DNA of 62,183 bases, counting the filler, from Sphacelaria rigidula (Eukaryota), in assembly GCA_964200075.2 (NCBI GenBank). It is 3 parts of 3 records of this genome, joined end to end, with 100 filler letters (N's around TTAATTAATTAA, not from the genome) between each part and the next. Parts side by side here need not be neighbours in the genome. Positions count along the whole stretch, not along the records: positions 20,769 to 41,429 come from CAXNAA020000504.1; 2 more parts are not named here. One strand, 5' to 3'. Positions 20,769 to 57,100 of the stretch are shown piece by piece (within the stretch, counting starts at the first letter, position 1; the number at the start of each line of letters is the position of its first letter). The notes below the pieces were generated by a model. It saw only the letters and a list, made by a program, of their open reading frames with translations, did not search any database and was not told where the DNA came from. The translations under genes and the position numbers were made by a program.

Positions 20769-22034
20769 TCACACGAATATTCATGTTATGCTCCCGCTAC
20801 TGTCCCCGCGCGAATGATTCGTCACCCCATCGATCAGCATGAAGTGCTCCACAAAACATACCATGTACAACCCATCTATCATCATCCGCGGCGGACTTTC
20901 GCATACACTACTGTTGACACCGGACACACCGCTCGCACGATTACCTTCTATCCACCCTACGTACGCGCGGACAACAAACTGAATGTGGATCGGAACGATC
21001 AGCACGCCCCCACCCTCACTACTTCCGAGGCTTCCACGCAGGCGAAGTCAGAATTTACTTGGGAATAAAGGGGGCGCACTCCCCCTTCGTCAAACGCAAC
21101 ACACACAAATAACTCAACCAATGACGGAAATGAAGAGGACGCACTCGCTGTCGCCAACGTCATCTACAATGCAATTGCGCCCTTGCAAAAACAGCAACTG
21201 AGCCTTCGATTTGACTGCGAAACGTGATACAATCGTAACACGCACTACTAGACAATAGCCTCCACTCGAAGCTGCACAGAGTCATGAGATGAAAACACTC
21301 TTTGCTGTCAACAGCCACGGCGCCTCGTCTGACGGCAGTTTCCGACGGTACGTTTTGGCTGCGTGAACCTGGAACGACGAACTCATCGCTTAGGTGCATG
21401 ACTCGCCCGAGGATCACGTACCCTACGTTGTTACAAGATCTCGTGTCGAGATGAAGCGTCTTGGCAGTGCTGCTTCTACTACGCGGGCGTGTCAGTTAAC
21501 TCCCACCGCACCGTCGCGGACGTGTTGGATGACATCCGGCGCACCGCCGGGTCGCCGCCCGCACACATATTTCACCATGCCGTTGCCCTTTCGCCTCTTG
21601 CACCCCCTACCTCGCCTCGACGGTGTGCTCCAAGGCTCATGTTTTGGGACAGTTTGTCCACGCCGAGTCTTGTTCCTGCTTTGCAGCATGTCGTGGTGGA
21701 ACGAGAGGGTCGGAGAGTCGACAGCGCGAGGGGCGTTCGTTGCTCGAAGTATACTCGACAGCGAAGGGTACAAGCTTACTACAACGGTGGAGACACGGTG
21801 CATGAGGAGATGCGGTGAGCAACGCGGGATTGACTCTGCAGACCCATGGCGAAGAGCACGCGGGAAACGGAGGCCGACACTGCCTTGCTCCGTCTCTTGT
21901 CTTTCCTCTTTCGCGCGGTGTCGGCACCGGACATCCCTTGCGAGAGGACACCAGGCAACAACAGCTGTATGAAAAAGTACTAATCGTCACCGCACGCAAT
22001 CACAGTGCCCCATGCATACCGGAGTCGGACTTAC

Positions 22035-25000
22035 AGTCATCGCTCTCCTTGCTGTCTTTGTCATCTTTGCTGTCCCTGTCATCCTTGCTGTCCTTGCCGC
22101 CCCTCCTCCTCTTGCCACCCCTCTCCCTCTTCCCGCCCCTCTTCTTGCAGCAGTCGCGCTTGTCGCAGTCACCGTCGCATGTGATGTCGCCCCCCACAGA
22201 CTTCCACCCCTTGGGACAACGGTAGTCGCGGCACTTCTTGTCTTCTGTCGCAGCCAGACGGAACCACAGGGTCACCCAATGTGAGGAATATCAAGCTAGA
22301 AGTGTTCCCGACGCAGCAGTCGTCGATCGCATCGTATCGACATCACATCTCGGGATACCCTTGACGGCAAGTCGCTCGCTCTTGTCGAATACTAGTTCAA
22401 ATATACTCTTGACCATACAATGCACTGGACAGACTGTCGGCGACAGATACCGCCTGCTCTTAGTTCACCTCGCGGCGGCGCCAACCCGGGCGCAGCAGCG
22501 TCATCAGGTATTTGAACCAGTGGTGGCGTGGGCATCACACTCGATGATATCGACCGCGACTGCAAGTACCGGGTCTTCTACACTGCTTACCCTTCTCGCA
22601 ACACTCGCGCTTGTCGCATTCGTCGCGGCACTTCTTGTCACCGACGTTTTGGAAGCCGCTGGGGCACGTGTAGTCGTCCTTGCACGTCTTCACCTCTGAG
22701 GATGACACGGGAGGTAGCAAGAGAACGCCATTGTCGCGTCAAGTAACAGTGGCACGCTACGGAGGGACAGGCCAAGCGAGAATGAAGCTCCATCTTTCCC
22801 CACCCCTGCTTCTAGCGGGGACACCTGAAACGTTTCTTTTCTTCTTCTTCACTGGTTGTAAAACGCGTACAAATCTGCATGGCATGTGATTCATATCGAA
22901 GTTACAGCGAAGCCCCAGGTAGTCTGGTGCCCGGTTTGTTGTCGCCACGTCAAGGTCGCGATCGGGACGAATGGGTAATCGAGATTGACGCAGGGGATGC
23001 ACGACTCGTCATTCCACATCCGCAGAGAACAAGTGTTCCCAGTATTTCGGCCGACGCTTTTGGTTGCATCCAAGTCAAGTGTCGATTACGACTGCTGGCA
23101 TCGGATCCTCCGAATACTCACCCTTCTCGCAACATTCGCGCTGATCGCACTTGCCGCTGCACTCCTTGTCACCGCGGTTGAGGTAGCCGTCAGGGCACTT
23201 GAAGTCGTCCTTGCATGTCTTCACCTCTGCGAAGAATACAGCAGCGGACGGATGAACGTCACTGTGGCGTTCGAGCTACAGTAACATATTGTGCGTGAGT
23301 TCTGAAGATGTGCGGTGGACCGCTCCACTGTGCCCCTGTGCCGTGCACCGATACGTTCGACAGGGACTATCGCACAGCATGGTTGTTGTTACACGAAAGT
23401 GCTGCCGTTGGTGCTGCGCTTCTGCCCCCCCAGGGTCTACACCACAGTCACGGCATCAGACGCCGGGTCCTACGATAGGGACGGGGAGTCTGCACGATCC
23501 TACCCCGTGTTGATGAACCTCTGTGTGGGAAACACATTGTCAAGTGATTTTTGATACGTGCATCATGCTGACATCGAGTTCTACTCGCATGAGAGCTGCT
23601 TCCAGCGACGTTGTACCGAGCGAGTGTACCATCACGACTTTCGGCGACACTGACAACACGTTGTGACTCATGTCTGATGACTGATCTCTGGTGACTCTTG
23701 TTTTCGTGTCGTAGCAAAAACGCTCCGGACCATCATCGATCACACAGCCGTGTTGATCGTCCATGTGAGACCTACATAACCCGCAGTGTGTAGCGAGCGT
23801 CTTGTGCTGTGGAGCGTACCCACAGCGAAGACCGGCCTTGGGGTATTGCGTTTTTCGTTGACTCACCCTTCTCGCAACACTCGCGCTTGTCGCATTCGTC
23901 GCGGCACTTCTTGTCACCGACGTTCAGGAAGCCGCTGGGGCACGTGTAGTCGTCCTTGCACGTCTTCACCTCTGAGAATGACACGGGGGGTAGCAAGATA
24001 ACACCATCGTCGCGTCAAGTAACAGCCGCGCACTACGGAGGCACGCTACGGAGGAACAGGCCAGGCGAGGATGCAACTTTGTATTGCTTCACCTCTGCTT
24101 CTAGTGGGGAAAAAAACTAAAACGTGTTCTTTTCTTCTTGTTCGCTGTGTATCGGTGTTGCAACGGAGCCACGAATAGTCTGGTGAAGCCCAGCTTTTTG
24201 TCGCCCAGTCAAGGTCGCGATCGGGACGAATGGATCATGACGTGCAAGGCTTTCACGTCTGGGAGGTTTCCTCTCCGTACGGGTTTCAAGTTCGAAGTAT
24301 AGAACCAATTTCCGCGACAACTCTGCAGAGTTGTCCCTCGACCACGATAGTGGCTTCGGTTCTCGAATGTTCAGCCCAAGGTATCATGACATCATATTTG
24401 GCGTAGAAATTGATGCATCGGAGACGAGTGTCTACATGTCGACGAGTCCAGTTTTCTATCCTGCATCCCGACCTCGGAATTTCTGCATCGGTCTCTAGGT
24501 TCAGAGATACCGTTGCACCGACGCGAGGGGTGCACGACTCGTCATTCCACATCCGCATAGGACGAATGATGTCCCCAGTATTTTGGTCAACGTTTTTGGT
24601 CGCATCCAAGTCAAGTGCCGGTTACGACTGCTGGCATCGGATCCTCCGAATACTCACCCTTCTCGCAGCACTCGCGCTGGTCGCACTTGCCGCTGCACTC
24701 CTTGTCGCCGCGGTTCCGATATCCGCGGGGGCAGGTAAAGTCATCTTTGCATGTCTTCACCTCTGCGAAGAACACGGCAGCCGACGAATGGATGTCACTG
24801 TGGCGTTCGAGCTACAGGAACGTATCGCACGGCATCGTTGTTGTTCCACGAAAGTGCTGCCGTTGGTGCTGCGCTTCAGCCCCCCCAGGGTCCACACCAC
24901 AGTCACGGCATCAGACGCCGGATCCTCCTACGATAGGGGCTGGGAGTCTCGTACGACCTCACCCCGTGGTGACACCTTCTACGTTAGCCCCCCCCCCCCA

Positions 25001-28000
25001 AAAAAAAAACCGGCTCAAAGTGCCACGAAACAAGTGGCCACACAGCGCCTGATGTTCGGGTTCAGGCTGCATGAGACACCTTCTGTCATGTTGGCGACAT
25101 TGGCTACAACGAACCCAAGCGTGGGAATTCCCAGCCTCTCGTTGTGCTCGGCTTTTCCCATTTCGATTTACGTGAAGATTTTGCCTCCCAAAACCATGCA
25201 CTTTTTTGGGGGGGAGGGGGCTATCGTAGAAAGTGTCTGGTGATGAACCTCTGTGTGGGAAACACACTGTCTAGTGGTTCTGATGCGTGCATCATGCTGG
25301 CATAGAGTTCTATTCGAATGAATGCTGCTGCTTCAGCGACGTTGTAACGAGTGAGTGTACACGAGTGGCCAGTGGGGTGCCTGCAACCTCAAATGTGGAC
25401 GTTACAAATGATGCACAACGTCTGTAACGTCCAAATTGGAGGTTGCAGGCACCCCAGTGGCCACCCGTCTACCGTCACGGGGCTTCGGCGACACCGACAA
25501 TACATTTTGTTTGATGATTGATCTCTGGTGGCTCTTGTTTTGGTGTACCAGCTAAAACACTCGGGACAATCAGCGGTCACACAGCCATGATGACCGTCAA
25601 TATACGACCTACGGAATCCGCAGTGTGAAGCGAGCGTACTATGCTGTGGAGGACACCCATAACGAACACCGGCCTTGGGGTATTGCGTTTTCGTTGACTC
25701 ACCCTTCTCGCAACACTCGCGCTTGTCGCATTCGTCGCGGCACTTCTTGTCACCGACGTTCAGGAAGCCGCTGGGGCACGTGTAGTCGTCCTTGCACGTC
25801 TTCACCTCTGAGAATGACACGACAGTCAACGAACGGGTCTCATCTCGGCGTGAAGTATCAACTGTACACCACTGGAGAAAAAGCCATGTCGGAATAACGC
25901 TTCATGATTTGTTGCACTTCTTATCATTTTGAGAACACCCAAACAATGCGCACACAACCATGTATTGAGATGTGATTCAGAGCGGTATCGATGTCCAAGC
26001 CGAAGGTATCTAGCGATGCTCGGCTCTCCGTGTCCAAGTCAGGGTCGCGATCAGGGCGACTGATTCGAAGAGAGAACGGCTCTCGCAGTCGAGAATCGAA
26101 GTTTAGGCTCGTTTTAGCCGATAGTTGCGGGAGGTGGCACGATTTTGAATCGAGGAAACCTACAGTTTGTTGACCCCATTGTGATCTAGAAACGCATGCC
26201 GGTATATATGTTAGTGTACTTCCTGTCACTCCACACGGGCCTCAAAAATGACCGACTATTCCGCGCTCCCCAGTTCGAAGGGTTTGCCTGTTTTGCTCAC
26301 GCACGCCTTGATGTAGGCGAGGGGCCGAAAACAATCCAGGGAGCCCGAAAATTGTCGTATTTCGCCCGATTCCGGGCGGGAAAATTACACAACCGGCCCA
26401 CTCTACTTGCTCTACTTGCTGATCGCATTCCAATCAGACGTCGATCGCGACTGCAGATGTCGCGTCTTCCAAGACACTCACCTTTCTCACAACACTCGCG
26501 TTGGTCGCACTTTCCACGGCACTTCTTGTCACCGCGGTTCAGGAAGCCGCGGGGGCAGACGAAGTCATCCTTGCATATCTTCACCTCTGCAACGAAAACG
26601 GTATCCATTGGCTGAGTGTCGTCGTGGCATGCAAGCGAGCATTGCATGCTATCTATCCCTGACCTTTCATGATGTGATGTTGACTGTTCTTCACGGTGTA
26701 CCGATACACCTCTGATGTCCTCCAAGTGATCACGTTATTTACTCCACCACGCCGTTTCGCCACATGCATGACCTGCACGTTGTACCGAGCTCTACTGTCC
26801 CGTAGACATTTCCATTCTCACTCCACGTGAAACTTGTAACAGGCACGTGGGCCAGCTGCTTCGAACGTGTCAGTGCCATCAACGATCAACTGGAGAGTTT
26901 GCTTCCCCCAGACACTCACCCTTCTCGCAACACTCGCGCTTGTCGCAGTCGCCGCTACACTCCTTGTCGCCGCGGTTCAGGAAGCCGCTCGGGCAGGTGT
27001 AGTCGTCCTTGCATGTCTTCACCTCTGAGGCGGACACGACAGCGGTGACGTTCTCTTGAATGAGATACGGTAGCTGGTTTGTAGCACGCGAGATCTGCGG
27101 TTTGCGTTAAGCTTGCTTCTTCGTCCGCTCATGCTGGATTACTCCGGCTTTGCAGGCAACTCGACCCACTCTTCGATCGAGTGGGGTGCTCCACTACACT
27201 GTGATGACCAACGTACTGGCGACGGTGACTAATGCATGACGACTCGTGACGCGTGGCACTACAGCGTCCCGACAGCATCTTCGATGTATCTGGAGGGTGG
27301 CTCGGCAGAAAAAAACACGACGTTCGCGCCCGGCCAGGAGCAAGGGTGGTGACAAGAGGGTCCCCCCTCGGTCGTCATGGTCCTTGTGCTGTATGCATAC
27401 CCTCAAGATGATGGCAAAATGTTTTATAATGATAGCTGATCGCTTGGACCGTACTCAACCCGATTGTACACTACAGCTGCAGGTATTGCTCCTTCCAGAT
27501 CCTTACCCTTCTCGCAGCATTCTTTCTGGTCGCACTTTCCACGGCACTCCTTTTCTCCGAGGTTGAGGTAGCCGCGGGGACACTTGAAGTCGTCCTTGCA
27601 CGTCTCCTTCTCTGTAACGGCCAAAGGGCATCAATAAATCACCCGCGTTGCCTCGTTTCGCCGGATCTTCCATAGACCAAACATTTGGCCGTTCAAAACG
27701 AAGGTCGTGGTCGACGGCACAAATGCGACTGGATTGTTGCACACGCCTGTTGGGCGTGGGCGATGCGTCTTCAACACGTTGCATCCCATCGACAACAGCG
27801 GGGCTATGTGTGTACTGTCTGTGCACTGCAACTCTACGCAGTGCTTCCCGAAGACACTCACCCTTCTCGCAGCATTCGCGCTTGTCGCACTTGCCGCGGC
27901 ACTCCTTGTTACCGACATTCAGGAAGCCCCTGGGGCACGTGTAGTCGTCCTTGCAAGTCTCCACCTCTGCGACGGACACGGAAGCCAAGCGGTGGATGTC

Positions 28001-31000
28001 GTCATCGCGTCCAAGCAACGTTCAAGCGTAATGGGCCACTTTCACAGCGGAGAACGCACCGGTGAAACCCAGGGTTCTTCACCTCGACACACTTTCAACT
28101 ACTTCAAACCTGATCTGTTCCATCTAGGTCACATTTTCGGTTATCTGCGTATTTGTATGGGTTTTAGAGGCGTATACTTGGATCAGGTGAATGTTGACCT
28201 CGTACTCGGATCACGTGTAGTGATCTGAAGCGATCTAGATCATATTCATATCACCTTTTACCGAGATGAATCCGAGATCTGGGACGCATGCCTCTAGCGG
28301 TACACGTGTGACACATGAGTATACCGAATCGGACCAGTACACCTGCACCGCGTCAACTCGCATGCGCATCTGCCGAGAACGGAACTCGCAATACTCGGGC
28401 CTAACGGTGCCAGCTGTACCATCAGGCCACCGGGTCGCGGAGAAAACTCCCTCATGAGTACGAATGCCTCGTACACGCTTACAGGCATCATAATTACGAT
28501 TTGGTAAACTCTCACCAGCGCCATGTCGTATTGTTTGCGTCCAACGTACTGCGCCATGTCCGCGGCCACCAAATTTCTTGTCAACGGCGAAAATACATTT
28601 GCACCAGTTCTTCATCCCACCTCTGCAACATCAAGGGCACGCGATATCGACTGCAGTCGATAGTAGGTATCGCTCCTGTCGGGTACTCACCCTTCTCGCA
28701 ACATTCGCGCTGGTCGCACTTGCCGCTGCACTCCTTGTGACCGCGGTTGAGGTAGCCGTCAGGGCACTTGAAGTCGTCCTTGCACGTTTCTTTTTCTGTG
28801 ACCACNNNNNNNNNNNNNNNNNNNNNNNNNNNNNNNNNNNNNNNNNNNNNNNNNNNNNNNNNNNNNNNNNNNNNNNNNNNNNNNNNNNNNNNNNNNNNNN
28901 NNNNNNNNNNNNNNNNNNNNNNNNNNNNNNNNNNNNNNNNNNNNNNNNNNNNNNNNNNNNNNNNNNNNNNNNNNNNNNNNNNNNNNNNNNNNNNNNNNNN
29001 NNNNNNNNNNNNNNNNNNNNNNNNNNNNNNNNNNNNNNNNNNNNNNNNNNNNNNNNNNNNNNNNNNNNNNNNNNNNNNNNNNNNNNNNNNNNNNNNNNNN
29101 NNNNNNNNNNNNNNNNNNNNNNNNNNNNNNNNNNNNNNNNNNNNNNNNNNNNNNNNNNNNNNNNNNNNNNNNNNNNNNNNNNNNNNNNNNNNNNNNNNNN
29201 NNNNNNNNNNNNNNNNNNNNNNNNNNNNNNNNNNNNNNNNNNNNNNNNNNNNNNNNNNNNNNNNNNNNNNNNNNNNNNNNNNNNNNNNNNNNNNNNNNNN
29301 NNNNNNNNNNNNNNNNNNNNNNNNNNNNNNNNNNNNNNNNNNNNNNNNNNNNNNNNNNNNNNNNNNNNNNNNNNNNNNNNNNNNNNNNNNNNNNNNNNNN
29401 NNNNNNNNNNNNNNNNNNNNNNNNNNNNNNNNNNNNNNNNNNNNNNNNNNNNNNNNNNNNNNNNNNNNNNNNNNNNNNNNNNNNNNNNNNNNNNNNNNNN
29501 NNNNNNNNNNNNNNNNNNNNNNNNNNNNNNNNNNNNNNNNNNNNNNNNNNNNNNNNNNNNNNNNNNNNNNNNNNNNNNNNNNNNNNNNNNNNNNNNNNNN
29601 NNNNNNNNNNNNNNNNNNNNNNNNNNNNNNNNNNNNNNNNNNNNNNNNNNNNNNNNNNNNNNNNNNNNNNNNNNNNNNNNNNNNNNNNNNNNNNNNNNNN
29701 NNNNNNNNNNNNNNNNNNNNNNNNNNCTTGTATAATCGAAATTGCTAACCCAACGACAATCTGACCAAGAGCGGACCTCGACCAGTGCTGACTTGCGGAG
29801 TGAGCGGATTAGTCTAGCCCCCACATTCCCCACCAAGAGCATGGATATCGCCTTCTCAAGGCGTTGCACGTGAGTGTCGACGGCGGAACGATGCACGTCC
29901 TGTCCGTGCACCACAGCACGTGTCGCTCCTGACGGAGTTTCTCACCCTTCTCGCAGCATTCGCGCTTGTCGCACTTGCCGCGGCACTCCTTGTTACCGAC
30001 GTTCAGGAAGCCGCTGGGGCACGTGTAGTCGTCCTTGCAAGTCTTCACCTCTGCGATGTACACGGCAGCCAATGGGTGGGCGTCGTCATCGCGTTCCAGC
30101 GACGCTGATGCACTCTGTTACTGAAGAGTGGTGGGCCGCTCCAAAGAACAGTGAGTATGAATCGCCAGTACTGGCATCAGTGATGTACTCTCTAGTTCGT
30201 TGTTTTCGTCGTACTTCCAACCCTTCCTCTTCCTGGGGACGGGCCCGTGGTCTCACCGGGTACAGGGCTTAATTTCGGTATCGTAGGTTGGTTGAACATC
30301 CCCGCACGCTGCCCAGTCTCGTCAGATAGACTTCACAGTACAATCTCGTCACACCAGCAATATATGCGTTATTCCTACTGGGCAGCTCCATGCCCGCGTT
30401 CACTACCGTATGCGATATCCCAGCCCCCATCCGTCATATCCAAACCGAATGCTGTGGACCGCAGCTAACCGCAGGTGGGTACAACGTTGCTTCCTTTGGA
30501 AACTCACCTTTCTCGCAGCATTCGCGCTGGTCGCACTTTCCGCGGCACTCCTTGTCACCGCGGTTGAGGTAGCCGTCAGGGCACTTGAAGTCGTCCTTAC
30601 ATGTTTCTTTTTCTGTGACGCACAAGTAACGCCAATAGATCATGCAACGTGTCGCGCATGGGTATGTCAATCTCAAGCTTGCCTCATTCAGTAGGCCCTG
30701 CTTCGAAGCATCGTGGGTGGCCACGGCAAACTGGGTTCGGTACCGGCAGCATACGCGCTTGAGGTGTACGCAGTTCGTACGCATGACCCAGTTCTTGGCC
30801 ATTCAGGACCAATCCAATAGCTCCAACGCTGACCACCACGGGAGTTGCGCTGCCTCCGACACACGAGTCGATCATCCTCACGACACCCACATGTTCATGA
30901 TGTGCTGGTTGTTCCGGCTCTCTTTCGATGATTCCTCGCCACCAACGATATAATAATATTGCCATCTAAGACCAACTGACTCATCGTCGTTGCCGCGTCG

Positions 31001-31450
31001 TCGTGAAACTAGTGACTAGTGCACTATTTCCGATCCAACTGCGATGGTTTTGTACTGCGTGGGAAGACCGCGTGCTCAGAGCACCGCATGGTAGTTCATA
31101 ACACCCCAGGATAGACGCCTGTCATGACCAATCGGGCGGGTCTCTACAGGAACCATGCCTCTGACCCTAACCCCAACCTTCAACTCCAATGCAGCCCTCC
31201 AAGCACGCGGTTCTCCCACATATTACAGTTCTTCTCGAATAACGTTCCGATCCGGTTTTCGCAAGTGGTGGGCATTCCTCATCGATTTCAACTGTCGACT
31301 CATCGTCCACCACCAAGACATGCAACCGTCTGGACGTCGCTTACCCTTGAAGCAGCAGTCGTACTTGTCGCACTTGCCGCGGCATCTCTTGCGGTCGTCG
31401 CCAATTGGCTTCCAGTCGCCGGGGCAAGAGAAATGCTTGCACCTGTCACG
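22035..31450 (-). CDS. Cysteine-rich tandem-repeat protein, one 6-Cys module per exon (14 modules visible; start and stop unresolved)
   Basis: Exons in transcription order: 31345-31450 (divergent, RDRCKHFSCPGDWKPIGDDRKRCRGKCDKYDCCFK); twelve 105-nt cag|...G|gt exons at 30508-30612, 29946-30050, 28691-28795, 27862-27966, 27507-27611, 26920-27024, 26482-26586, 25703-25807, 24658-24762, 23867-23971, 23122-23226, 22591-22695 (consensus EVKTCKDD[YF]xCPxG[FY]LNxGDKxCxGxCD[KQ]RECCEK); and 22035-22244 (divergent module plus K/R/G and D/K/S tail, then a GTAAGT donor or read-through to TGA at 22000). All exons are open and have canonical splice sites. Confidence 0.9.
24242..24518. mobile_element. MITE-like insertion, GTGCAA...TTGCAC ends
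   Basis: Absent from the paralogous intron at ~22985; flanked by TGAC/CGAC (near 4-bp TSD). Confidence 0.6.
24971..25237. mobile_element. MITE with TIR GACACCTTCTACGTTAGCCCCC / GGGGGCTATCGTAGAAAGTGTC, 4-bp TSD TGGT
   Basis: TIRs and TSD visible; empty site in the paralogous intron at ~23508-23511. Confidence 0.85.
25360..25469. mobile_element. Tc1/mariner-type MITE (110 bp, TA TSD)
   Basis: Near-perfect palindrome TA|CACGAGTGGCCAGTGGGGTGCCTGCAACCTC...GAGGTTGCAGGCACCCCAGTGGCCACCCGTC|TA; empty site gagtgTAccatcac at ~23627; second copy at 39275-39489. Confidence 0.85.
28806..29726. other. Assembly gap inside the cysteine-exon array
   Basis: ~920 N. Confidence 0.99.
31051..31227. mobile_element. 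TGTA...TACA MITE with telomere-like core (degenerate copy)
   Basis: tgtactgcgtgggaagaccgcgtgctcagag ... accctaacccc ... aagcacgcggttctcccacatattaca; flanks GTTT/GTTC. Confidence 0.7.
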
Positions 31451-33833: not shown

Positions 33834-34110
33834 GACAGTGACCCACGTGTAGATCTCGCCTCCCCAAACCAGTCACTGTCCCGGGGGGCGCTATCGCAGC
33901 ATTAGTCTGGTTCACCATCATCAATAGAGTGATCTCATCGTTAGCGTCACTCACCACATGGACATTTGATGCAGTAAAACCAACGCTGGGTGTTGTTGTC
34001 CACAACGCCCAAGGAAACGACTTATATTATGGTGCCAAACTGAACCAATGTGATTCGGCTTTTCGACCCCCAGGGTGGCTCATCTGTTTAATCGTCCAAC
34101 ATGGTCGTTG

Positions 34111-34305
34111 TGTAATGCGTGAGAGGACGGCATCGGAATTTGAACACCTCTATAGCTAAGGTTAGGGTTAGGGTTAGTGTTGGGGTTTGGGTCAGGGGTG
34201 TGGTACCTGCAAGGACTGACCCGATTTGTTTTGGAAAACGTCGATCCTGAGGTATTTCGAACTACGGCGCGGTCCTCTGAGCACGCGGTCCTCTCACGCA
34301 TTACA
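34111..34305. mobile_element. TGTA...TACA MITE with TTAGGG core
   Basis: TIR TGTAATGCGTGAGAGGAC / GTCCTCTCACGCATTACA; TSD GTTG; internal ggttagggttagggttag. Confidence 0.9.
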
Positions 34306-35768
34306 GTTGGCCACCACCGCACCCTTTCAGCTCGGCGTATATGCGTATATACTGTACAAAAACAACAAAACAACCATCCGATCCCCTCTGTGCTACACGT
34401 GCAACATCGGCATGTCAATGTACGGCAGTGCGCGAGATTTATACTATACATCACCTTGCGGCCACGGGAGGTGAGGTCGCGATGTGTGTCTGCTGGGTCA
34501 AAATCCTCCTGATTAGCAATTCCGTGCTCCCCGCCTGCCGGCACGAGGCCGCAGCGAACACGAGTAATAAAGGCAGACGTTGGGGTTAGGTCAGCGCATG
34601 ACGCCACCAATGTGATACACGGCGGAGACGAGACACTTTTTCACCATGTCGGTGTACCGTCTTAGCAGCCAGCCTAGAAGCTTGAAACCTCCTACCGAAC
34701 AGTTCTCGACAAGCGCAGCGACATATCACGAAGTTTACCTACTCTTGTCATCGGGGGATCGCCATGCTTGTGCTCCGATAGCTTCCCTGTACTCGAGGGT
34801 GTTCACACAAAGCATAATGTCGTGACTGCCCACATCGGAGTGAAGAGAACGTGGGTTGAATTCCCACCAGATGCATTTCTTCCCTTTCGACATAGAGTAT
34901 TTCCATCGTCGAACGCGGGAGGATGTAAAGAAACATGAATTCAGCCCTGGAGACCACGGATTCGTCGTAAGGAAAGGGAGGGGTACATATTGTGTGACGA
35001 AAAGAATCGTGTGCCGATGACATATCAGACACGGGATTCTACAAATCGGGGATGGATCTTTTATTTGGGGATGAAGACCCGGGGGATCGAAGTCTTCGTA
35101 CCATACTAAATCTTCCAAGTACGCTTCCATTCCTCCCCTAGCTTGTAGCTTCTGACAACCACTACACGCCATACAAGTTTGGATCCCGATAAACCGAAAT
35201 GTCGGGGTCTCAGGTGAACAACCAATTTTGGCGTCCGATCGGACACCTAAAATCGCTCAAATTTGGGGGGTATGCGCGGCCCTCTAGGGGCAAAGAAAAA
35301 AGCCTCTGGAGATGTTCAATCCCTCTGGAGGAAAGCCAAAAATCTTCTCTGGAGGGTCGCGCACTCCTCCGGAGGCGTTTAATTCCCCTCTGGAGACTCG
35401 AAAATTTTACCCACCTGGAGGAATTTTAGAGGTGGCCAAATGGACGCGTGTGCGATGATTGGTTGCTGTGATACCACCCCCTTGCTCCCCCCGAAAAGTG
35501 CCAACAGAAATCGCTTCTTGCAAAAGTGATATCGTGACATCTCAGATGGGAACGTGAAACATCCCGTTGACAGCGGGATGACGGAGGTCGTGACAGACAA
35601 GTCAACACAATCGAACGTGAACCTGAGGATCGTATTGCCCTCCTGAACCGAAACACACCGCTCATTTCACTGCTGCTCATCAGCCGGGCATGCTGTGCTC
35701 GACCCTGCTCAAATCGGTTCAGAATTCAGGGAGAACTCCGACTTGCGTGAGACGCGCGCATTGCACAC

Positions 35769-35985
35769 TGTAATGCGTGAGAGGACCGCGTGCTCAGAGG
35801 ACCGCGCCGTAGTTCGAAACACCTCAGGATCGACGTTTTTCAAAACCAATCGGTCCAGTCCCTGCAGGTACCACTCCCCCAACTATAACCCCAACACTAA
35901 CACTAACACTAACCCCAACCCTAACCATGGGAATGTTCAAATTCCGATGCGGTCCTCTAAGCACGCACTCCTCCCACCCATTACA
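35769..35985. mobile_element. TGTA...TACA MITE with CCCTAA-like core
   Basis: Same TIRs, opposite orientation to the 34111 copy; flanks ACAC/GCAC. Confidence 0.9.
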
Positions 35986-37045
35986 GCACGCTCAGAAACA
36001 GTCAGCAACAGCACGTTTGCGGTTGCTATTTGACACGCACGCGGCCGTCTTTCATCCAATACTGGACGGATTTCCGTCAAACAAGGGCTGTCGTGTATAG
36101 ATGGTGAGCTAGCGCTTGAGCTAACAACGCGTGTGAGTGCTGGGTGTTTATGCGTCGGTTTTCGTGGCTCGATGTTTTGGCGCTGTGTCACCTCGTTGCG
36201 TCTAGTCCGCAGCGGTACACAGAGATGTTGGACTAACGGCCACTCTCAGAACCGCCGCATTCTTTACTTGTGTGCAGATCTGGGCTTCGATCTGGACAAA
36301 ACTGCTTGTCGATACCACGAAGCACTGGTCGTTGGGGGGCAAACACTTCTCCAGAAGTGATTTTACGAAAAGTGATGGGAGTCACATCCGATAAGACCCC
36401 GCCTGATGCGTGCACAGCACTCATGCTCTCGACCATCCGAGAAAAAAATAGTGCGGACGGGTCAAAAACGCGCGGATTCGATCCGACCGCACGTTTTCGA
36501 CACGAAAACAATGTGGTAAGTCACGGCCGGAATGAAGCGCGAAGAACACAGTATTGGGGGTTGGCGTAGAAAAAAGGCTTCGCTCATCCTGGGGAAAGGA
36601 CTGGGCTACGTGATGTTTCTCTGCTGTCCCACAATTTCTCCACAAAATTCGAAATATGACGCCGCCAGTGACCTGTAGACGGAGGCGACAGGGCCTTGGC
36701 CAGTAGTAGTAGGTATCACCACCTGGTAGAGTGGTTCTCAGTGCTGTTACTTTGTGTCCGGAGAGCGAAAACCACATCTTCAGTGAAGCTTGCCGTCCCG
36801 GTAAGGGCACCCAGCGTGAGTTGGACGCGTTTCCGCCAAAAGCAGCGCCGGGTTTGCCGACGCCACACTTTGCCTGGCAATCTCTCTGCCCCAGCCCTCG
36901 CTCGAGAGTTCTCGGTATGTCTTGGGCTGCGATGAGATTATACCAAGTGATACCATCACCTCGCCTTGGCCGGTCCCGCTTGTAGCAAGTATTCATGCAT
37001 TCAAATATGAGTTTCGATTTTGAACCCCAGGTATACAGTGTGGTC

Positions 37046-37260
37046 TGTAATGCGTGAGAGGACCGCGTGCTTCCAGGACCGCATGATAGTTCGGAACACC
37101 TTGGGGCCGACGTTTTTCAGAAACAATCGGGCCGGTCCCTGCAGGGACCACGCCCCTCACCCGAACCCCAACACCAACCCTAACCCTAACTAACCTCATC
37201 CATAGGGGTGTGCAAAATACGATGCAGTCCTCCAAGCAAGCGGTCTACTCACGCATTACA
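37046..37260. mobile_element. TGTA...TACA MITE with CCCTAA core
   Basis: Same TIRs; internal accctaaccctaac. Confidence 0.9.
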
Positions 37261-37558
37261 CGATCGACCCCATCGAACCCGGACTCGAAATTCAAGACTG
37301 TGGAGTTCGTTGGGCGGGGCACATGTCCCATTTCTCTCAGGATGACACCATTTGAAGTTTCAGGCAGTCGTGCTACAAGACGAGGGGGATCAAAGCTTCA
37401 GGGGACGGACGTTGGGCAGAAGTCGGACACGAACGTCACATTGATACTCGTGGCACCGGCTCCACGCGGTAACGCGACGTCAATTCCGAGATGGGCCTAC
37501 CAGCGCGCTACTCGTTCTCGCGAAAGCTCGAGGCATTTATATGTACACCGGGGCATGG

Positions 37559-37764
37559 TGTAGTGCGTGAGAGGACCGCGTGCGTAGAGGACCGCGCCGT
37601 AGTTCAAAATACCTCAGGATCGACGTTTTACGAAACCAATCGGGGTCAGTCCCTGCAGGTACCACGCCCCTGACCGTAACCCCGACACTAGCCCTAACCC
37701 CAACCATAGGGGTGCTCGAATTCCGATGCGGTCCTCTAAGCACGCTGTCCTCTCACGCATTACA
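37559..37764. mobile_element. TGTA...TACA MITE with CCCTAA core
   Basis: Same TIRs; perfect 5-bp flanking duplication CATGG. Confidence 0.9.
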
Positions 37765-37861
37765 CATGGTATATGTACCTGCCACATGAATCCGCAGTAG
37801 CAACACAGGAGCAACCCCACATATAAATGATGTAGTCAGCTCGCAGTATCGAGGATATCGT

Positions 37862-38054
37862 TGTAATGCGTAAGAGGACCGCGTGCTTAGAGGACCGCAT
37901 TCGAATTTGAACATCCGTATGGTCAGGGTTGGGGTTAGGGTTAGGGGCGTGGTACCTGCAGGGACTGGTCCGATTGGTTTTAGAAAACGTCGATCCTGAG
38001 GTGTTTTGAACTACGGCGCGGCCCTATAAGCACGCGGTCCTCTCACGCATTACA
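37862..38054. mobile_element. TGTA...TACA MITE with TTAGGG core
   Basis: Same TIRs; internal ggggttagggttagggg. Confidence 0.9.
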
Positions 38055-38780
38055 CCACCATCAGTCCAGAAAGGACAGTTCAATTCAAATAGTGGGCACC
38101 TGAAACGAGCGTAGGAGGTCGATCGTCCAAAACACCGCCGTGGGTGACCCAGAGAAGTGTGCGGTGCTCAAGTCGCATTATCCGCGGGATACAAACAGCA
38201 CGCTATAGCAATGAGCTGCCGAATATGTGTGTCCTTCCATAACGACGCACTTCAACTGTTCAAATATAATCTGGGGGCTAGCCTGCCCAACTTGGTACGA
38301 GTACAAGAGGTTCAATCATCCACCCAAGTCGCCACGCGACGCCCGTTGAAGTGATACTCGAAATCTCAGTCATCAGCTGCTCACTCAATACCAGCAAGCA
38401 GGTGCAGTGAAAGCCTGCGCGTCGTCAGCAACACACGATTGTATACTCGTTCGGATAATTTCAACACACTCATCCGCTATGGAATACTATATACCATTAC
38501 ATCACCAGCGCTCGGAACAAATCCCACCGCACTGTGTGCACTGACCTTCAGGTTCAACAACAGCGGTGGATCCACATGCCATACCCAGCAACAGCAAAAA
38601 AAAGGCTGTTTTCTCGCCTCGGATCTTCATGGTAGCCCTTGCTCTCGAGAAGTGAAGCTGCTAGGAGGTCGAAGGTGGTGTGAAATTGCTGTTGCACAGT
38701 ACACCGGAACGGGAGTAGTCTTGGTGAATGAGAGAGGAAGGGGTTGGGGTGTGGGATGCGGGGATGGGGGGGAGGGGGCG

Positions 38781-38815
<35 letters not shown>

Positions 38816-38900
38816 GAGGGAATAAAAAAATGGGATATATTCCCCGGGGGCGGGGGGGGGGAACGGTTTTTGTTTTTTTTGTTTTTTTTNNNNNNNGAGT

Positions 38901-38971
<71 letters not shown>

Positions 38972-39274
38972 AGGCACGACTGAACGGCATATCCAAATTG
39001 GAATATTTCACCCGGTGCCGAGCGGAGTATACGTCTTGTATTCTGTCCGTTTTTTCTCATATATGTGTCGGGGTATTCACGTCTGTGTGGTGCAGGTCTG
39101 AAAACCCGCAGTGGAGAAGGCCGAGTTTGAGGCGACCTGAAGTTTCGGGCGTAGATCTCAGGTTGATTTTTTTGAACAAACAACAACAAAAACACCGTTA
39201 ACCCTAACCCTAACCCCAACCCCGACCCGAGGAGTACGAGACCCGTGGGCAACAGGCGTGCATGAGTTCCCCTA

Positions 39275-39489
39275 CACGGGTGGCCACTGGGGTGCCTGTA
39301 ACCTCAAATTTTGACGTTAACCCTTAGACCGCGGTGGGCATAGTCCATTTGGATCACGCATACTTTCTTCAAGTGAAAATTGATGCCGATTCAGCAGGTG
39401 ACCTACCCTCGCAGGCTAAGGGTTAAGGCGTTGTGCAACGGCTGTGACGTCCGAATTCCAGGTTACAGGCACACCAGTGGCCACCCGTG
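39275..39489. mobile_element. Tc1/mariner-type MITE (TA TSD) with nested piggyBac-like MITE
   Basis: TA|CACGGGTGGCCACTGGGGTGCCTG...CAGGCACACCAGTGGCCACCCGTG|TA; removing the nested element and one TTAA leaves ~109 bp, matching 25360-25469. Confidence 0.85.
39321..39422. mobile_element. piggyBac-like MITE
   Basis: TTAA|CCCTTAG...CTAAGGG|TTAA. Confidence 0.8.
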
Positions 39490-40222
39490 TAGGCAAAGTG
39501 TGCGTTGGTTGGCAGACCTCACATCGATGCCGCAGGCGCTCATTTCGACAAAAACACGTTGTGGACGAGCTGGGTCCACCGCTCACCTGTCCCACACCAG
39601 AGTTTACCCCCGTCGACATTGTTCCGGGAGAATCTTCCGGCAGTTCATGCGCACAGCTCCACGTAAAAACGAAGGAGTGTGGTTGGATACAAAAAACGGA
39701 AGTTCGTAGTAGTGCACCGCAGCAAAGTACACCCAAGCCGAGGGTCCCCTACCGAGACTACTCTGACCAGCGAATGAACTACGGTGACGAATGGTGTTTC
39801 TGGTAACATTGCTTCCTCGTTTCTGACATGAAGGAAGGGTCACCCACGTGACGATTTCTCCACAGCAGCCAGCATTCTGAACAGAGCGCTGTTCGAGCAA
39901 CAAATATGCACTTCGTGGTACCGGAAAACGGATAGGAACGGGGGTATCCGCCCACCCCCGATGGACATCTATTGACTGCTCCTCGGTCCATCGGTGCCTA
40001 ATTCCTTTTCCCTTTCAACCCCTCCCCTTCCCCAGGATGAGTTCGAAGATAGCAGTCCAGTGTACGCACTATGCCGAAACATATCCACCAAGCCAAAATC
40101 GCTTCGTTCCTGGTCCACGGGGGAGAAGAGTGGAATCCCCCCCGTCGCGGGATTCTTTCTGATGATCTCAGCACATGCCGTATGCATTCTATCGTGTTGG
40201 TCCTATCCGGCAGGGGTCGCGC

Positions 40223-40444
40223 TGTAATGCGTGAGCGGACCACGTGCCTTTCGGACCGCATCGGAGTTCCAACACCCCTATGGTTAGGGTTAGGGTTAGG
40301 GTTAGGGTTAGTGTTGGGATCAGGGTCAGGGACGCGGTGCGGTCCTTGAGGGGACTGGCCCGATCGGTCTTGAAAATCGTCCGTCACGGGGTGTTTTGAA
40401 CTACGATGCGGTCCAAAAAGCACGCGGTCTGCTCACGCATCACA
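40223..40444. mobile_element. TGTA...CACA MITE with (TTAGGG)4 core
   Basis: Same TIR family; internal ggttagggttagggttagggttagggttag. Confidence 0.9.
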
Positions 40445-41429
40445 ACGCGTCCTCGACTTCTCGTACACAACAGCTGCTCATGGTCAGTCTACCACACAAG
40501 GTATAGTCTGGTACACTAGAAAATCGAGAGGCATGCACATTAGAACAGCGTACGCGCCAAATGGTCTTGAAGTAGCGACTCACCCTTCGAACGCCGGGGT
40601 AAGGCCGTCTGGGTCTCACCTTCATTTTTCTACTGGAAACAATGCTTACTCAACACGTGAAGGGCCTTCCCGGATGATGGAAGGATCAAGGCACATACAT
40701 CGGTGTTGGGGTTTCAAAATCGACATAGCAACGGTGCTGGTCTGTGTGGCTACTCTGTTGAGAATCTGGACGAAGCTGTTTACGAATATATATTCACTGC
40801 GTTGGAATGAAGTCGTCGCAGCAAGACAAGCAAGCGCTAAAACTTATGGCGGTTCAACAAAATCACGATCCACGTATCTTTTTCACCGAGTGCCTACTTC
40901 TTGGTAATCTATATATAGTCCACGCAAGGATCAGTCGAAAACAAATTTCGGGACACGTAGGCTGCCCCCCCCCCTCCCGGAGGACATTTTTTCGGAAATT
41001 GCCATGATTTTTTCGATTTTTGTTCTTGTCAAGTTTGTCACAAGGAATTGACCACTGAACACTGTTTTGATTATTTCTGTTAATTTTGTTACAAGAAATT
41101 TATCACTGAACGTTGACAATGACCGAAAAGTCTGATGGGCTTTGTGGGGTTCGTATATCTGCTTCTGCTCCTTGCCCGTTCTGCCCGTTCCGTCCCGATG
41201 ACCTCAGATGCCGAAGGGCGTTTTTTCGACAATCAAAATTATCCTGATTTATTTTTTCCCTGTTAACTTCGTTGCAAGAAATTGATCAATGAACATTGAC
41301 AAAATCCGAAAGGTTTGGTGGACTTTGCGGGGTGTATGTTTCACACTCTGGACAATGTGTGTGTTGTGTGTTGTCGTCCCATTTATTCTGGACACCAGTC
41401 TACACCTTTCGGTGTATGTGGGTGCATCA

Positions 41430-54100: not shown

Positions 54101-57100
54101 GCAATCTCTGTCTTGGACATGAATACCAGAACATGAATATCCTTCCCGAGCGTCCACCTGGGACCTCAAATCTATCTGAGATATCCATCGAACCTAAAAT
54201 GCTTTCGATGGACATGCACCTGGGGTGTCAGGTATGCGTAGGACAAACAATTTAAACTTACACGTCCACCTGACTTGTGGCTGTCCACCTGCGATATGGA
54301 CATCTCTCTGGATACCCACCTGGGTGCTCATATGTATCTGGATTGCTCATGATAGAGGTCCGTTTGGGTCTCGTCGAGAATCGACATGAGATGCCCATCC
54401 ATAACGCTTGTTCGGAAGGCTCGCCTGGAATGTCGGGTCCAACTGGGAAATCTCTCGGGAACTAAGATGTCTCAGATGAGCCTTTTATTTCCGATACCGG
54501 AGGATTTACTGGGACGGCTACGAGGACCTCGGGTGTCCACGTGAAACCATCCACCTACTGATGCAGGCCCATTCGCCCGTGCTATCAACTCAACTTCACC
54601 AACCCTAACCATAGCCCTAACCCCGACCTGAACCTGTGAACAATCTGTGCGCTGGCGACCATGTATCGAAGTGGGGTGTGCCGGCAGGGCCTAGTACATT
54701 ATGCGCTTGTAGGATATATATCTCGCCAAGGCTAGCGTGTGCTGGTAAAACATTAACCAGTGTGAGTTGGTAGGGCATGCATCTTCGTATGCGTGCGCTG
54801 AGACAGCTTCGTGCGATGTACCCAAAGGTGGACATCCCAGACAGATACTCCAGATGAATTCAGGGTCTTAGGTGGGTGTCCCAGACTGACGTCAACCTTC
54901 CCCATGGATGTCCTTCGTGAATATCTCAATTAGACATCCATATTTTTCTTGGGTGGGCCTGAGGTCCCAGATACACGTCTCGGATGAATGTCCGCGTCCC
55001 AGATGAACATCCACCTGGGATGTCCCAGGTTCAGAAAAATTTACCGAATGGATCGGAGCTCCCAGGTGAACGGGCCAGATGGACCCCATGTCTCAAATAT
55101 AAGTTGCGTGGTGGTGCACGACGGTATCTCTTTGCACGCACCAATGGCACCTGCATCTTTCTCCGTCAACCTTCAAATACGCAAGCCCACATCTCGAGTC
55201 TACACCATCGCGAACCAACCCGTATTTCACTACACCATCCTTCACCTGCGCGCTTTGGTGTTCCTTCTCTTCTTCTTTGGAGACGATCAAGTCGAACCCA
55301 ATCGGTTTCACCCCCTGTGGCCCTCCCCCTCCAGTGGAGACACTCCCCGACCGCCGTCGCAGTGCCTGATGGGCCAATCGTTTCTTCAGGAGTCGACTCG
55401 TTCGGCTTCGAAATCCGGCGCCCAGCAATCCCGCCAATTGATCCGCCAACCTTTCCCGGAAAGCTTCCATGTTTGATGGCGGCCGGTGTGCGGGTATGCA
55501 AGTGCTGGCTGCGGGGGAACAACGATTGAGATGACGCATGCTTGGGTACGTGTGGAAGCTAGAGGTGGTGCAAGGGATGGGGTCTCTCTCTTGAGCTCTT
55601 TGGTGAAGGGAATGCAGCCCTGATGCAAAGCCTCGAAGGGAAACGTGGTACTAATTATTCCACAGGAAGGAGGAGAAAGACGAGGTAAATTGAGTTTTCG
55701 TTGCATCTCGAGAGCGACAGTGACTCCCTCGACACTTTTGCCTTACGTCCAACGGAAAATACTTGAGGTTCTCACGAAAAATCTAACGATAATGATACCA
55801 TCATCGCTATCTTTGACCAAAATATCCAAATATCATGTGAAAGTCGCGTCAATATGCTACTGCTTGATATGCTACCAGTTCAAATATTGGGTGATGTCTA
55901 AGTTGCGTCTTCTTCCGTGAGCGTCCATCAACCATACGGCGCGACGCTGGTTCCTCTCATTTGCAAAGGACAGCACGCGAAGGCACCATGGGTATTCCCT
56001 ATGAAATGCCAACGTTTCGTGCCTGTCCATTTTTCAAGCGAAACGGTCGATGATGCGAGCACGGGACCCTCTTCGAAATCCCGGGCTTCTATGAGCATCT
56101 GCCGTCCGGCATCCTTGATACACACGTGCACCCCTTCCGAATGAGTACCCAGCCGTGCTAGTGTCAGGGTGCCAGACCAGTACGTTACAGGGATATGTGA
56201 GGCGATGATCGGCTTGTCACCACACAACGCCACCTGAACACGAAGTGGAAGTTGGCCAAGGGGGAAGAGAATTGGCTGTGATTGGGGGATAGCGGCACAG
56301 CTTCTTGTAAGGAAGGTACGGTGCGCATAAGCACACCGTGTCCAGGATGCTGGATGGGTTCGTTTACATCGAACCGCCGTCCGCATCACGCTGCAGCGTG
56401 CGCAGAGTCAATTCATTTTTGACATCTGTGCAAGTATAAAAAAGCACCCGACTAGAGAAGGGGCGCCTTTATACATGTTGACGCCTCCATGCCTTTTCTC
56501 TGACCAGATGCTTGCACATCACCAAACACACGCCTCACCTGGTACATCAATCGCCTGGCCAGGTATTGTCTCCAAGGATGGTCCAGCCACAGTAACTCTC
56601 CAAGGCCGGTCCCTCTCCACGCCTCCACCCCAAACGTTTCCTCAAGGCAACTTGCTTCCCTACCGCCCTTCCCCATCTCATCATCTTCCATTTGTATTTG
56701 TACTGCTAGAACTTGGCCTTGATCTCTAACCGTGACTCTTCTCCTTAGTCCACGGTGCTCTTCTACGGAGTACACGGGATCTGACATTTGCTCGCGATCA
56801 CGTATAATAGCAGACATGCATACATCCGCGAAATCGTATTTAGATTTTGGTGCGGATTTATCCGGCAAGGTGGCTTCTGATTCAGCCAAGTTTGATTTTC
56901 TCCTGCCCAGACTCGAGACGTTACCCACAATCGGCGCATTGGGGTGCCGGAGTTCTCGTTCCTTGGCGGCGTTCACCAGACGTGTGGAGGAAGCAAGACT
57001 CGGCTTGAGACGCAAGCAGGCGGTGCTTGCTGACGAGTCCGATTTGTGGTCAACAGCACTCAAGTAATGCAGCTCCAAGTCGGCATACTCTCGTTCTTGA

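Follow-up and report, generated by a model that had tools for sequence, protein, structure and literature searches.

A mosaic exon in a 14-module gene of the brown alga Sphacelaria rigidula, probably formed by gene conversion within a tandem exon array

RESULTS

A tandem array of module exons on the minus strand

We analyzed a stretch of 62,183 nucleotides (nt) from Sphacelaria rigidula (NCBI GenBank assembly GCA_964200075.2; three parts of three records joined by filler letters, with positions 20,769 to 41,429 from CAXNAA020000504.1), hereafter the window, which carries a gene built of tandemly repeated module exons. One of these, exon 23122, has the flanks of one exon of the array and the coding interior of another. 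A profile of the module, run against the six-frame translation of the whole window, found exactly 14 modules, all on the minus strand. Named by their low coordinates, the module exons are 22140, 22591, 23122, 23867, 24658, 25703, 26482, 26920, 27507, 27862, 28691, 29946, 30508, and 31345. Each of the 13 non-terminal exons is 105 nt long, with AG/GT borders on the minus strand (present in all three of 23122, 24658, and 28691) and a common phase. The terminal exon holds a 105-nt module as well (22140-22244), but its reading frame stays open beyond the module until a stop codon at 22000-22002. The exons are phase symmetric and encode one module each, of about 35 residues with six cysteines; residues C4, C10, P11, G18, C22, C26, D27, C31, C32, and K34 are invariant. 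A 5′ end (start codon, signal peptide) was not found among the minus-strand open reading frames (ORFs) above 31450. The features discussed below are collected in Table 1.

Contigs from one public sequencing run, X6, contain a CT..AC joint at 22244->22591, and word depth in this run reached 10^4-10^5 in exon-containing bins versus ~0-15 in intron-only bins. We took X6 as RNA from a software guess and from this exon/intron contrast, no run being recorded as RNA. The depth contrast suggests that the array transcript is very abundant and spliced.

Table 1. Features of the module array and of mosaic exon 23122, in window coordinates
Feature	Coordinates	Strand	Basis or remark
Gene body with 14 module exons	22003..31449	minus	Module profile, exon borders, stop codon, RNA-like splice joint
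Mosaic exon	23122..23226	minus	V-type 5′ edge, 24658-like flanks, 28691-like interior
Duplication partner of 23122	24658..24762	minus	Flanks as in 23122
Donor-type exon, K-type 5′ edge	28691..28795	minus	Private C at position 57 (His); 10 nt from N gap
Sister exon of 28691, K-type edge	30508..30612	minus	1/45 from 28691 at positions 12-56, 7/105 overall
Outgroup exon, older, positional type of 23122/24658	26482..26586	minus	Weak flank similarity (repeat family D20)
Two-exon unit, copy 1 (22591 + 23122 + introns)	22591..23866	minus	Repeat families D3, D12, D14, D19; blastn
Two-exon unit, copy 2 (23867 + 24658 + introns)	23867..25702	minus	Repeat comparison; blastn
Segment identical (0/45) to 28691	23171..23215	minus	Exon positions 12-56
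Minimal transferred tract (putative)	23171-23210	minus	Exon positions 17-56
Sites common only to the 28691/30508 subfamily	23180-23199	minus	Exon positions 28-47
Maximal transferred tract (putative)	23115-23215	minus	Position 12 to intron base +7
Assembly gap, 921 N, intron upstream of exon 28691	28806..29726	unstranded	N run

Exon 23122 lies in a tandemly duplicated unit

Both 23122 and 24658 are flanked by sequence of a tandemly duplicated two-exon unit. Its two copies aligned over their full extent by blastn, and a partial third copy begins at exon 25703. The introns around the two exons differ by 35 mismatches in 352 ungapped columns (~90% identity). The donor side accounts for 14 of the mismatches (136 columns, with no difference in the first 36 bases of the intron) and the acceptor side for 21 (216 columns), the latter also having one 81-nt indel. 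These counts bear out the original prediction, made from the sequence of the window, that the donor-side introns of the pair are nearly identical and their acceptor flanks homologous. Its further claim that 28691 has different flanks also stands: blastn found no match between the flanks of 28691 and those of 23122, and local alignment of the donor flanks detected only weak residual similarity (score 13, z 4.5), while on the acceptor side 28691 meets the 921-N gap after 10 nt. Left- and right-anchored views of the units indicate that all derive from one exon-plus-intron ancestor, but intron identity between the units of 23122 and 28691 has fallen to about one half, with many indels.

The interior of exon 23122 matches a different exon

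Within the exon the relationships change. A recount gave 16 differences in 105 nt between 23122 and its duplication partner, the number originally reported, at minus-strand exon positions 17, 20, 26, 28, 29, 35, 36, 37, 41, 44, 46, 47, 56, 83, 92, and 95. Over its last 94 nt, 23122 differs from 28691 at two positions (57 and 83), as also claimed; 28691 has a private base at the first of these and 23122 at the second. The first 11 nt side with 24658 (0 differences) and not with 28691 (7 differences), again in line with the earlier count. Because they have the common form of the array (identical in 26920 and one base off in six other exons), these 11 nt are diagnostic only jointly with the flanks. 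Positions 12-56 carry the strongest contrast, with 0/45 differences from 28691 and 13/45 from 24658, and the identity between the interiors of 23122 and 28691 includes rare synonymous codons. Over positions 57-105, the three exons lie within 2-3 differences of one another. The nearest relative of the tract (28691) thus differs from the nearest relative of the flanks (the 24658 unit), as expected under non-allelic gene conversion.

The mosaic exceeds chance

Total divergence between 23122 and 24658 is not significantly higher in the exon (16/105) than in the flanks (35/352; Fisher p = 0.16), so the signal sits in a local cluster and in the silent sites. Thirteen of the 16 differences fall inside one 40-nt window of the exon (positions 17-56; permutation p = 0.003), and at positions 17-47 the two exons differ at 12/31 nt versus 35/352 in the flanks (p = 7e-5). 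At silent sites, 11.5 of 18.2 differ between 23122 and 24658 (0.63), about six times the intron divergence of 9.9% (~12/18 silent versus 35/352 flank; Fisher p = 5e-8). Over codons 4-34, by comparison, 23122 has 1.0 silent difference in 15.0 sites from 28691 and 11.5 in 15.8 from 24658. Protein-level selection can neither raise nor erase silent differences in this manner.

A triplet test restricted to the exon gave the same picture. Along 23122, the informative sites run as 7 with 24658, 13 with 28691, 1 with 24658, and 2 with 28691 (maximum descent 14, permutation p = 3.5e-4). A Sawyer-type run test on the exons plus 60-nt flanks made nearly every pair "significant"; because exons evolve more slowly than introns, we discarded it in favor of exon-only tests. 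The mosaic exceeds chance. Exchange confined to the exon interior, as the original prediction proposed, is the reading best supported by the ~90% collinear flanks, the 0/45 and 2/94 interior counts, the silent sites, and the triplet test.

Public contigs show no alternative letters in the mosaic exon

Contigs from four public runs belonging to three studies were compared with the window over 22000-28805, with 32 of 25,382 pieces listed. Across these runs, exons 23122, 24658, and 28691 showed no alternative letters. Each border of 23122 was bridged separately: record 9 of run X3 (23207-23421) joins the acceptor intron to positions 1-20 of the exon, and record 26 of run X6 (22751-23143) joins the donor intron to positions 84-105. 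The public contigs end inside the repeated module exons.

Elsewhere in the compared region, the runs departed from the window at position 27917, where all four have G in place of A. The site corresponds to position 50 of exon 27862 (minus strand), and the change is synonymous: AAT in the window against AAC in the runs, AAC being the codon found in the other exons. Either the A is a private variant or it results from an assembly error; G would lower the distance between 27862 and 29946 from 3 to 2.

A proposed conversion tract limited to the exon core

The mosaic is best explained, and probably correctly so, by non-allelic gene conversion, here intragenic and ectopic, with module exons of a single tandem array as partners. 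The mosaic itself, its statistical support, and the silent-site pattern are observed; the repair mechanism, the direction, and the timing are inferred. Tandem duplication of a two-exon unit of ~1.3-1.8 kb would have produced exons 23122 and 24658, after which a short tract from a 28691-type exon would have been copied into 23122. The tract would measure 40 nt at minimum (positions 17-56) and ~101 nt at maximum, from position 12 of the exon to base +7 of the intron. As donor, we propose exon 28691, which lies ~5.5 kb away in this gene, or a copy nearly identical to it. Only the exon core could have supported strand invasion or a heteroduplex intermediate; the tract would be limited to the exon because the 23122 and 28691 units are still similar only there. 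Their longest exact common run is 45 nt (positions 12-56), and beyond the 7-nt splice-donor consensus their introns differ. The trace would be identical under synthesis-dependent strand annealing, a double crossover, or a replication template switch. Between paralogs, conversion is usually seen in exons, introns diverging too quickly to be used as substrate (PMC3966223), and its success drops with divergence inside the tract (bioRxiv 10.1101/2025.10.29.685298).

The probable direction of transfer can be inferred in part

The original prediction held that the direction of transfer could not be determined. This is too cautious, as the direction can be inferred in part. Judging from outgroup exon 26482 and from related sequences of other assemblies, a 28691-type exon was probably the source, and either 23122 or the common ancestor of 23122 and 24658 the recipient.

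The transferred segment appears native to the exon subfamily with a K/R-type 5′ edge. At positions 28, 35, 36, 37, and 47, the state of 23122 is common only to 28691, 30508, and in part 27507, the three exons with a K-type edge. At four of these positions, 24658 agrees with most of the remaining exons, and its state at position 36 is common only to 26482 and 27507. The outgroup exon 26482, which occupies the corresponding place in the next, older unit, agrees with 24658 at half of the 16 sites that differ (20, 29, 35, 36, 37, 47, 83, and 92).

ORFs from other assemblies point the same way. P0011 has 23122/24658-like flanks but the CPRG core of 24658 and 26482, and fragments with a K/R edge mostly have an FKCPDGYL-type core. 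The CPDG motif occurs in 7/11 K/R-edge modules versus 1/17 V-edge modules, 23122 being the sole case; this count omits P0001 (a duplicate of 28691) and has descriptive value only, since the modules are related by descent. The original suggestion that such exchange diversifies modules is borne out in the same descriptive sense, by this one V-edge module with CPDG. Reads running from 28691 into the gap (loose ends at 28802) look similar, on visual inspection, to the intron on the acceptor side of 30508, which fits 28691 and 30508 as native sisters.

Observations that weigh against the proposed transfer, and alternative explanations

Several observations count against a transfer of this kind, from a 28691-type exon into an already duplicated 23122. 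Over positions 12-56, 24658 is at least 9/45 from every exon of the window, and it has five private states, all within the disputed segment. These states fit equally well as surviving ancestral states or as a patch from a donor outside the window; under the proposed transfer, the ancestral states would survive only in 24658, 23122 having been overwritten. The donor candidates compared were the exons of the window. Nor do the data place the exchange after the duplication, because a silent-site difference of 1 in 15 agrees with the 10% divergence of the flanks. In addition, 24658 and 28691 match along a run of 15 polymorphic columns within positions 58-91 (66 pairs tested; p = 4e-4 without correction), and more than one exchange may have occurred in the history of the array. 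Finally, the scaffold sequence of the window is interrupted by seven N runs, one of which, the 921-N gap, begins 10 nt from exon 28691, and no piece among the 32 of 25,382 listed spans the whole of exon 23122 with both flanks.

The first group of these observations would also follow from the reverse order of events, in which the ancestor of 23122 and 24658 already had a 28691-type core from an earlier exchange and 24658 was later patched at positions 17-56 from a relative outside the window. Conversion would still be limited to the exon in this case, with 24658 as the recent recipient. We regard this order as unlikely, though the most credible of the alternatives. It accounts for the clustering of all 13 differences of positions 12-56, for the private states of 24658 and its distance from the window exons, and for its silent-site distance to every other exon, which is the highest. 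It also fits what 24658 and 28691 have in common, namely a Ser codon at position 69 and the 58-91 run, as well as the existence of paralogs in the species (P0002) and of an RNA-like contig with a KKT-type exon edge that is not present in the window. Against this order, it requires two events and an unseen donor, versus one event with a donor inside the window. Moreover, CPRG is the motif not only of 24658 but also of exon 26482 and of two ORFs with matching flanks, P0011 and P0044, so a patch into 24658 would have restored the ancestral motif by coincidence.

The state of the scaffold raises the question of an assembly artefact, in which a short-read assembler crossed the 45-nt stretch common to both exons or collapsed repeat copies. 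The seven N runs, the gap beside 28691, the breaking of contigs within module exons, the lack of a listed piece across 23122, and the contradiction of window base 27917 by four of four runs all speak for it. We nevertheless judge an artefact improbable. Two compensating switches within 105 nt would be needed, because both flanks of 23122 are collinear with the flanks of 24658. Further, 23122 and 28691 each have a private base (at 83 and 57), no alternative letters appear in four runs, each junction is bridged separately together with 28691-type sites, and the longest exact common run, at 45 nt, is below ordinary read length.

The original prediction also allowed for conversion templated by cDNA, in which a reverse-transcribed copy of an abundant mRNA serves as repair template and the tract is exon limited by construction. 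That option found no support, and we rate it as very improbable. The tract is not detectable outside the exon, and the X6 depths indicate that transcripts may be abundant, both as this model would have it. The 5′ end of the tract, on the other hand, lies between exon positions 11 and 17, inside the exon and off its border; all introns are retained; and the neighbors 22591 and 23867 keep their own type and were not co-converted. A genomic donor accounts equally well for the limits of the tract, and no result prefers cDNA. A cDNA template is unnecessary because the loss of similarity outside the exon core itself sets those limits.

Least probable of all is that no exchange occurred, with purifying selection, codon bias, and convergent selection keeping 23122 like 28691 while 24658 evolved fast: exons are far better conserved than introns in this array (23867/25703, 0/105; 27862/29946, 3/105; both with diverged flanks) and a GC content at third codon positions (GC3) of 0.85 suggests codon bias, but the identity reaches minority codons (CCT for Pro, CTC for Leu) limited to the 28691 subfamily, and faster protein evolution cannot account for a silent divergence of 0.63 between 23122 and 24658 versus 0.10 in the flanks.

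The encoded module matches no described family

The module found no family in Pfam, where the top match was Shisa_N (PF13908) at 15.8 bits, below the gathering cutoff of 22. Two proteins with Sushi domains (PF00084), P0003 and P0004, align only at module-profile positions 2-24 and 8-24. A sequence search of the PDB with the module gave no match (best E = 0.038), and an AlphaFold model of the module (pLDDT 81.6) found no structural match by Foldseek or VIA-align wide. The 80-residue protein of the terminal exon, compared with 4,060 longer-protein candidates, matched nothing at E <= 0.01.

A profile search of 1.84 billion representative proteins returned 41 matches at E <= 0.001, mostly single-exon ORF fragments; two of the 41 are membrane-anchored proteins with similar CPxGW modules. 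One protein, P0001 (61 residues; "unnamed protein product, partial [Sphacelaria rigidula]" in NCBI), is an exact substring of the spliced translation of 29946 and 28691, in agreement with this alga as the source of the window. Within the searches made, public annotation apparently covers the 14-module gene only by this partial model. A paralog, P0002, is present in the same species. A literature search on cysteine-rich repeat proteins of brown algae found nothing relevant among the matches listed.

Other observations at the locus

Contigs of the RNA-like run X6 also join 22241-22244 to an exon end of the 27862/29946 type, with summed depths of 4384 and 6018 versus 1768 for the canonical 22244->22591 joint. 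These joints could reflect in-frame skipping of several exons, which are phase symmetric, or transcripts of shorter paralogs such as P0002. We did not accept the X6 joints (for example, 25807->28691 and 22244->27862) as exon skipping, given that the short side measures 20-26 nt and the exon ends are near-identical. The exon-jumping joints were instead treated as ambiguous placements or paralog transcripts.

The last ~50 nt of the acceptor-proximal introns of 23122, 24658, 27862, 29946, and 26482 are still similar across units (z 7.5-11). Read in frame, they give similar peptides, which are also found in the ORF fragments P0007, P0009, and P0042 from other assemblies. The similarity may have persisted from the ancestral unit, or it may reflect constraint on a branch point or an alternative acceptor.

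Exons 22591, 23867, and 25703 differ from one another at 0-2/105 nt, with 0-1 differences in ~18 silent sites, a near-identity compatible with purifying selection alone. In the pair 23867/25703, the exons are identical (0/105), yet the acceptor-side introns are barely alignable (z 4.3); the donor sides are ~85% identical. Homogenization by conversion is a possible alternative to purifying selection for the identity of this pair.

In the intron between 24658 and 25703, the stretch 24951-25631 reaches a word depth of 10^4-10^6 in the three DNA-like runs and includes a stretch of C and then one of A near 24990-25010. Its origin is probably a high-copy repeat or a fragment of a transposon. Outside the gene, dispersed repeat families (D8-D15) with internal telomere-like TTAGGG/CCCTAA runs occur at 34090-40450 and 54588-54634, and small N gaps at ~38.75-38.98 kb and 44.3-44.5 kb adjoin long G-runs.

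DISCUSSION

In animal modular proteins, internally repeated phase-symmetric exons, each encoding one module, undergo concerted evolution by exchange within one gene. The event proposed here adds one more case to a familiar process, the non-allelic conversion of tandem repeats, and opens no new question. A literature search combining tandemly duplicated exons, gene conversion, and introns found no equivalent case among the matches listed.

Three published systems offer comparisons. Conversion between tandem paralogs of Caenorhabditis resembles the array in tract length (tens to a few hundred nt), in the discordance of tract and flank similarity, in the confinement of the tract to exons by diverged introns, and in a nearby donor on the same chromosome (PMC3966223). 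The difference is that those paralogs are separate genes, whereas here the partners are exons of a single gene with ~94 nt of usable similarity. In a model of HMA4 in Arabidopsis halleri, exons likewise stay exchangeable while long introns diverge (bioRxiv 10.1101/2025.10.29.685298). HMA4 conversion homogenizes whole-gene copies, in contrast to the single event proposed here, which would have made a module unlike its nearest duplicate. The LHCX clusters are closest in lineage, being tandem clusters in brown algae with ectopic conversion read from identity patterns (bioRxiv 10.1101/2024.02.19.579948). They consist of whole genes of a known family, and the part of that report used here does not describe an exon-level mosaic.

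A more far-reaching interpretation is that the array is a self-diversifying cassette system, in which very high transcription promotes frequent short, exon-limited exchanges, possibly templated by spliced RNA or cDNA, module interiors are reshuffled from one position to another, and selection keeps new combinations such as the V-type edge with a CPDG core. We consider this highly improbable; were it true, it would imply somatic or germline combinatorial variation of a surface or secreted protein of a brown alga.

Taken together, these results describe a clean, statistically supported conversion, as we interpret it, of a 40-100 nt tract between internal repeat exons, with limits that would be set by surviving similarity. 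The consequences for work on this locus are practical: (i) exon trees in this array do not track duplication history, and the similarity of single exons is unusable for ordering duplications; (ii) the locus requires long reads before population or comparative use; and (iii) a 14-module, six-cysteine gene without a described family and with an apparently abundant transcript may merit annotation in brown-alga genomes.

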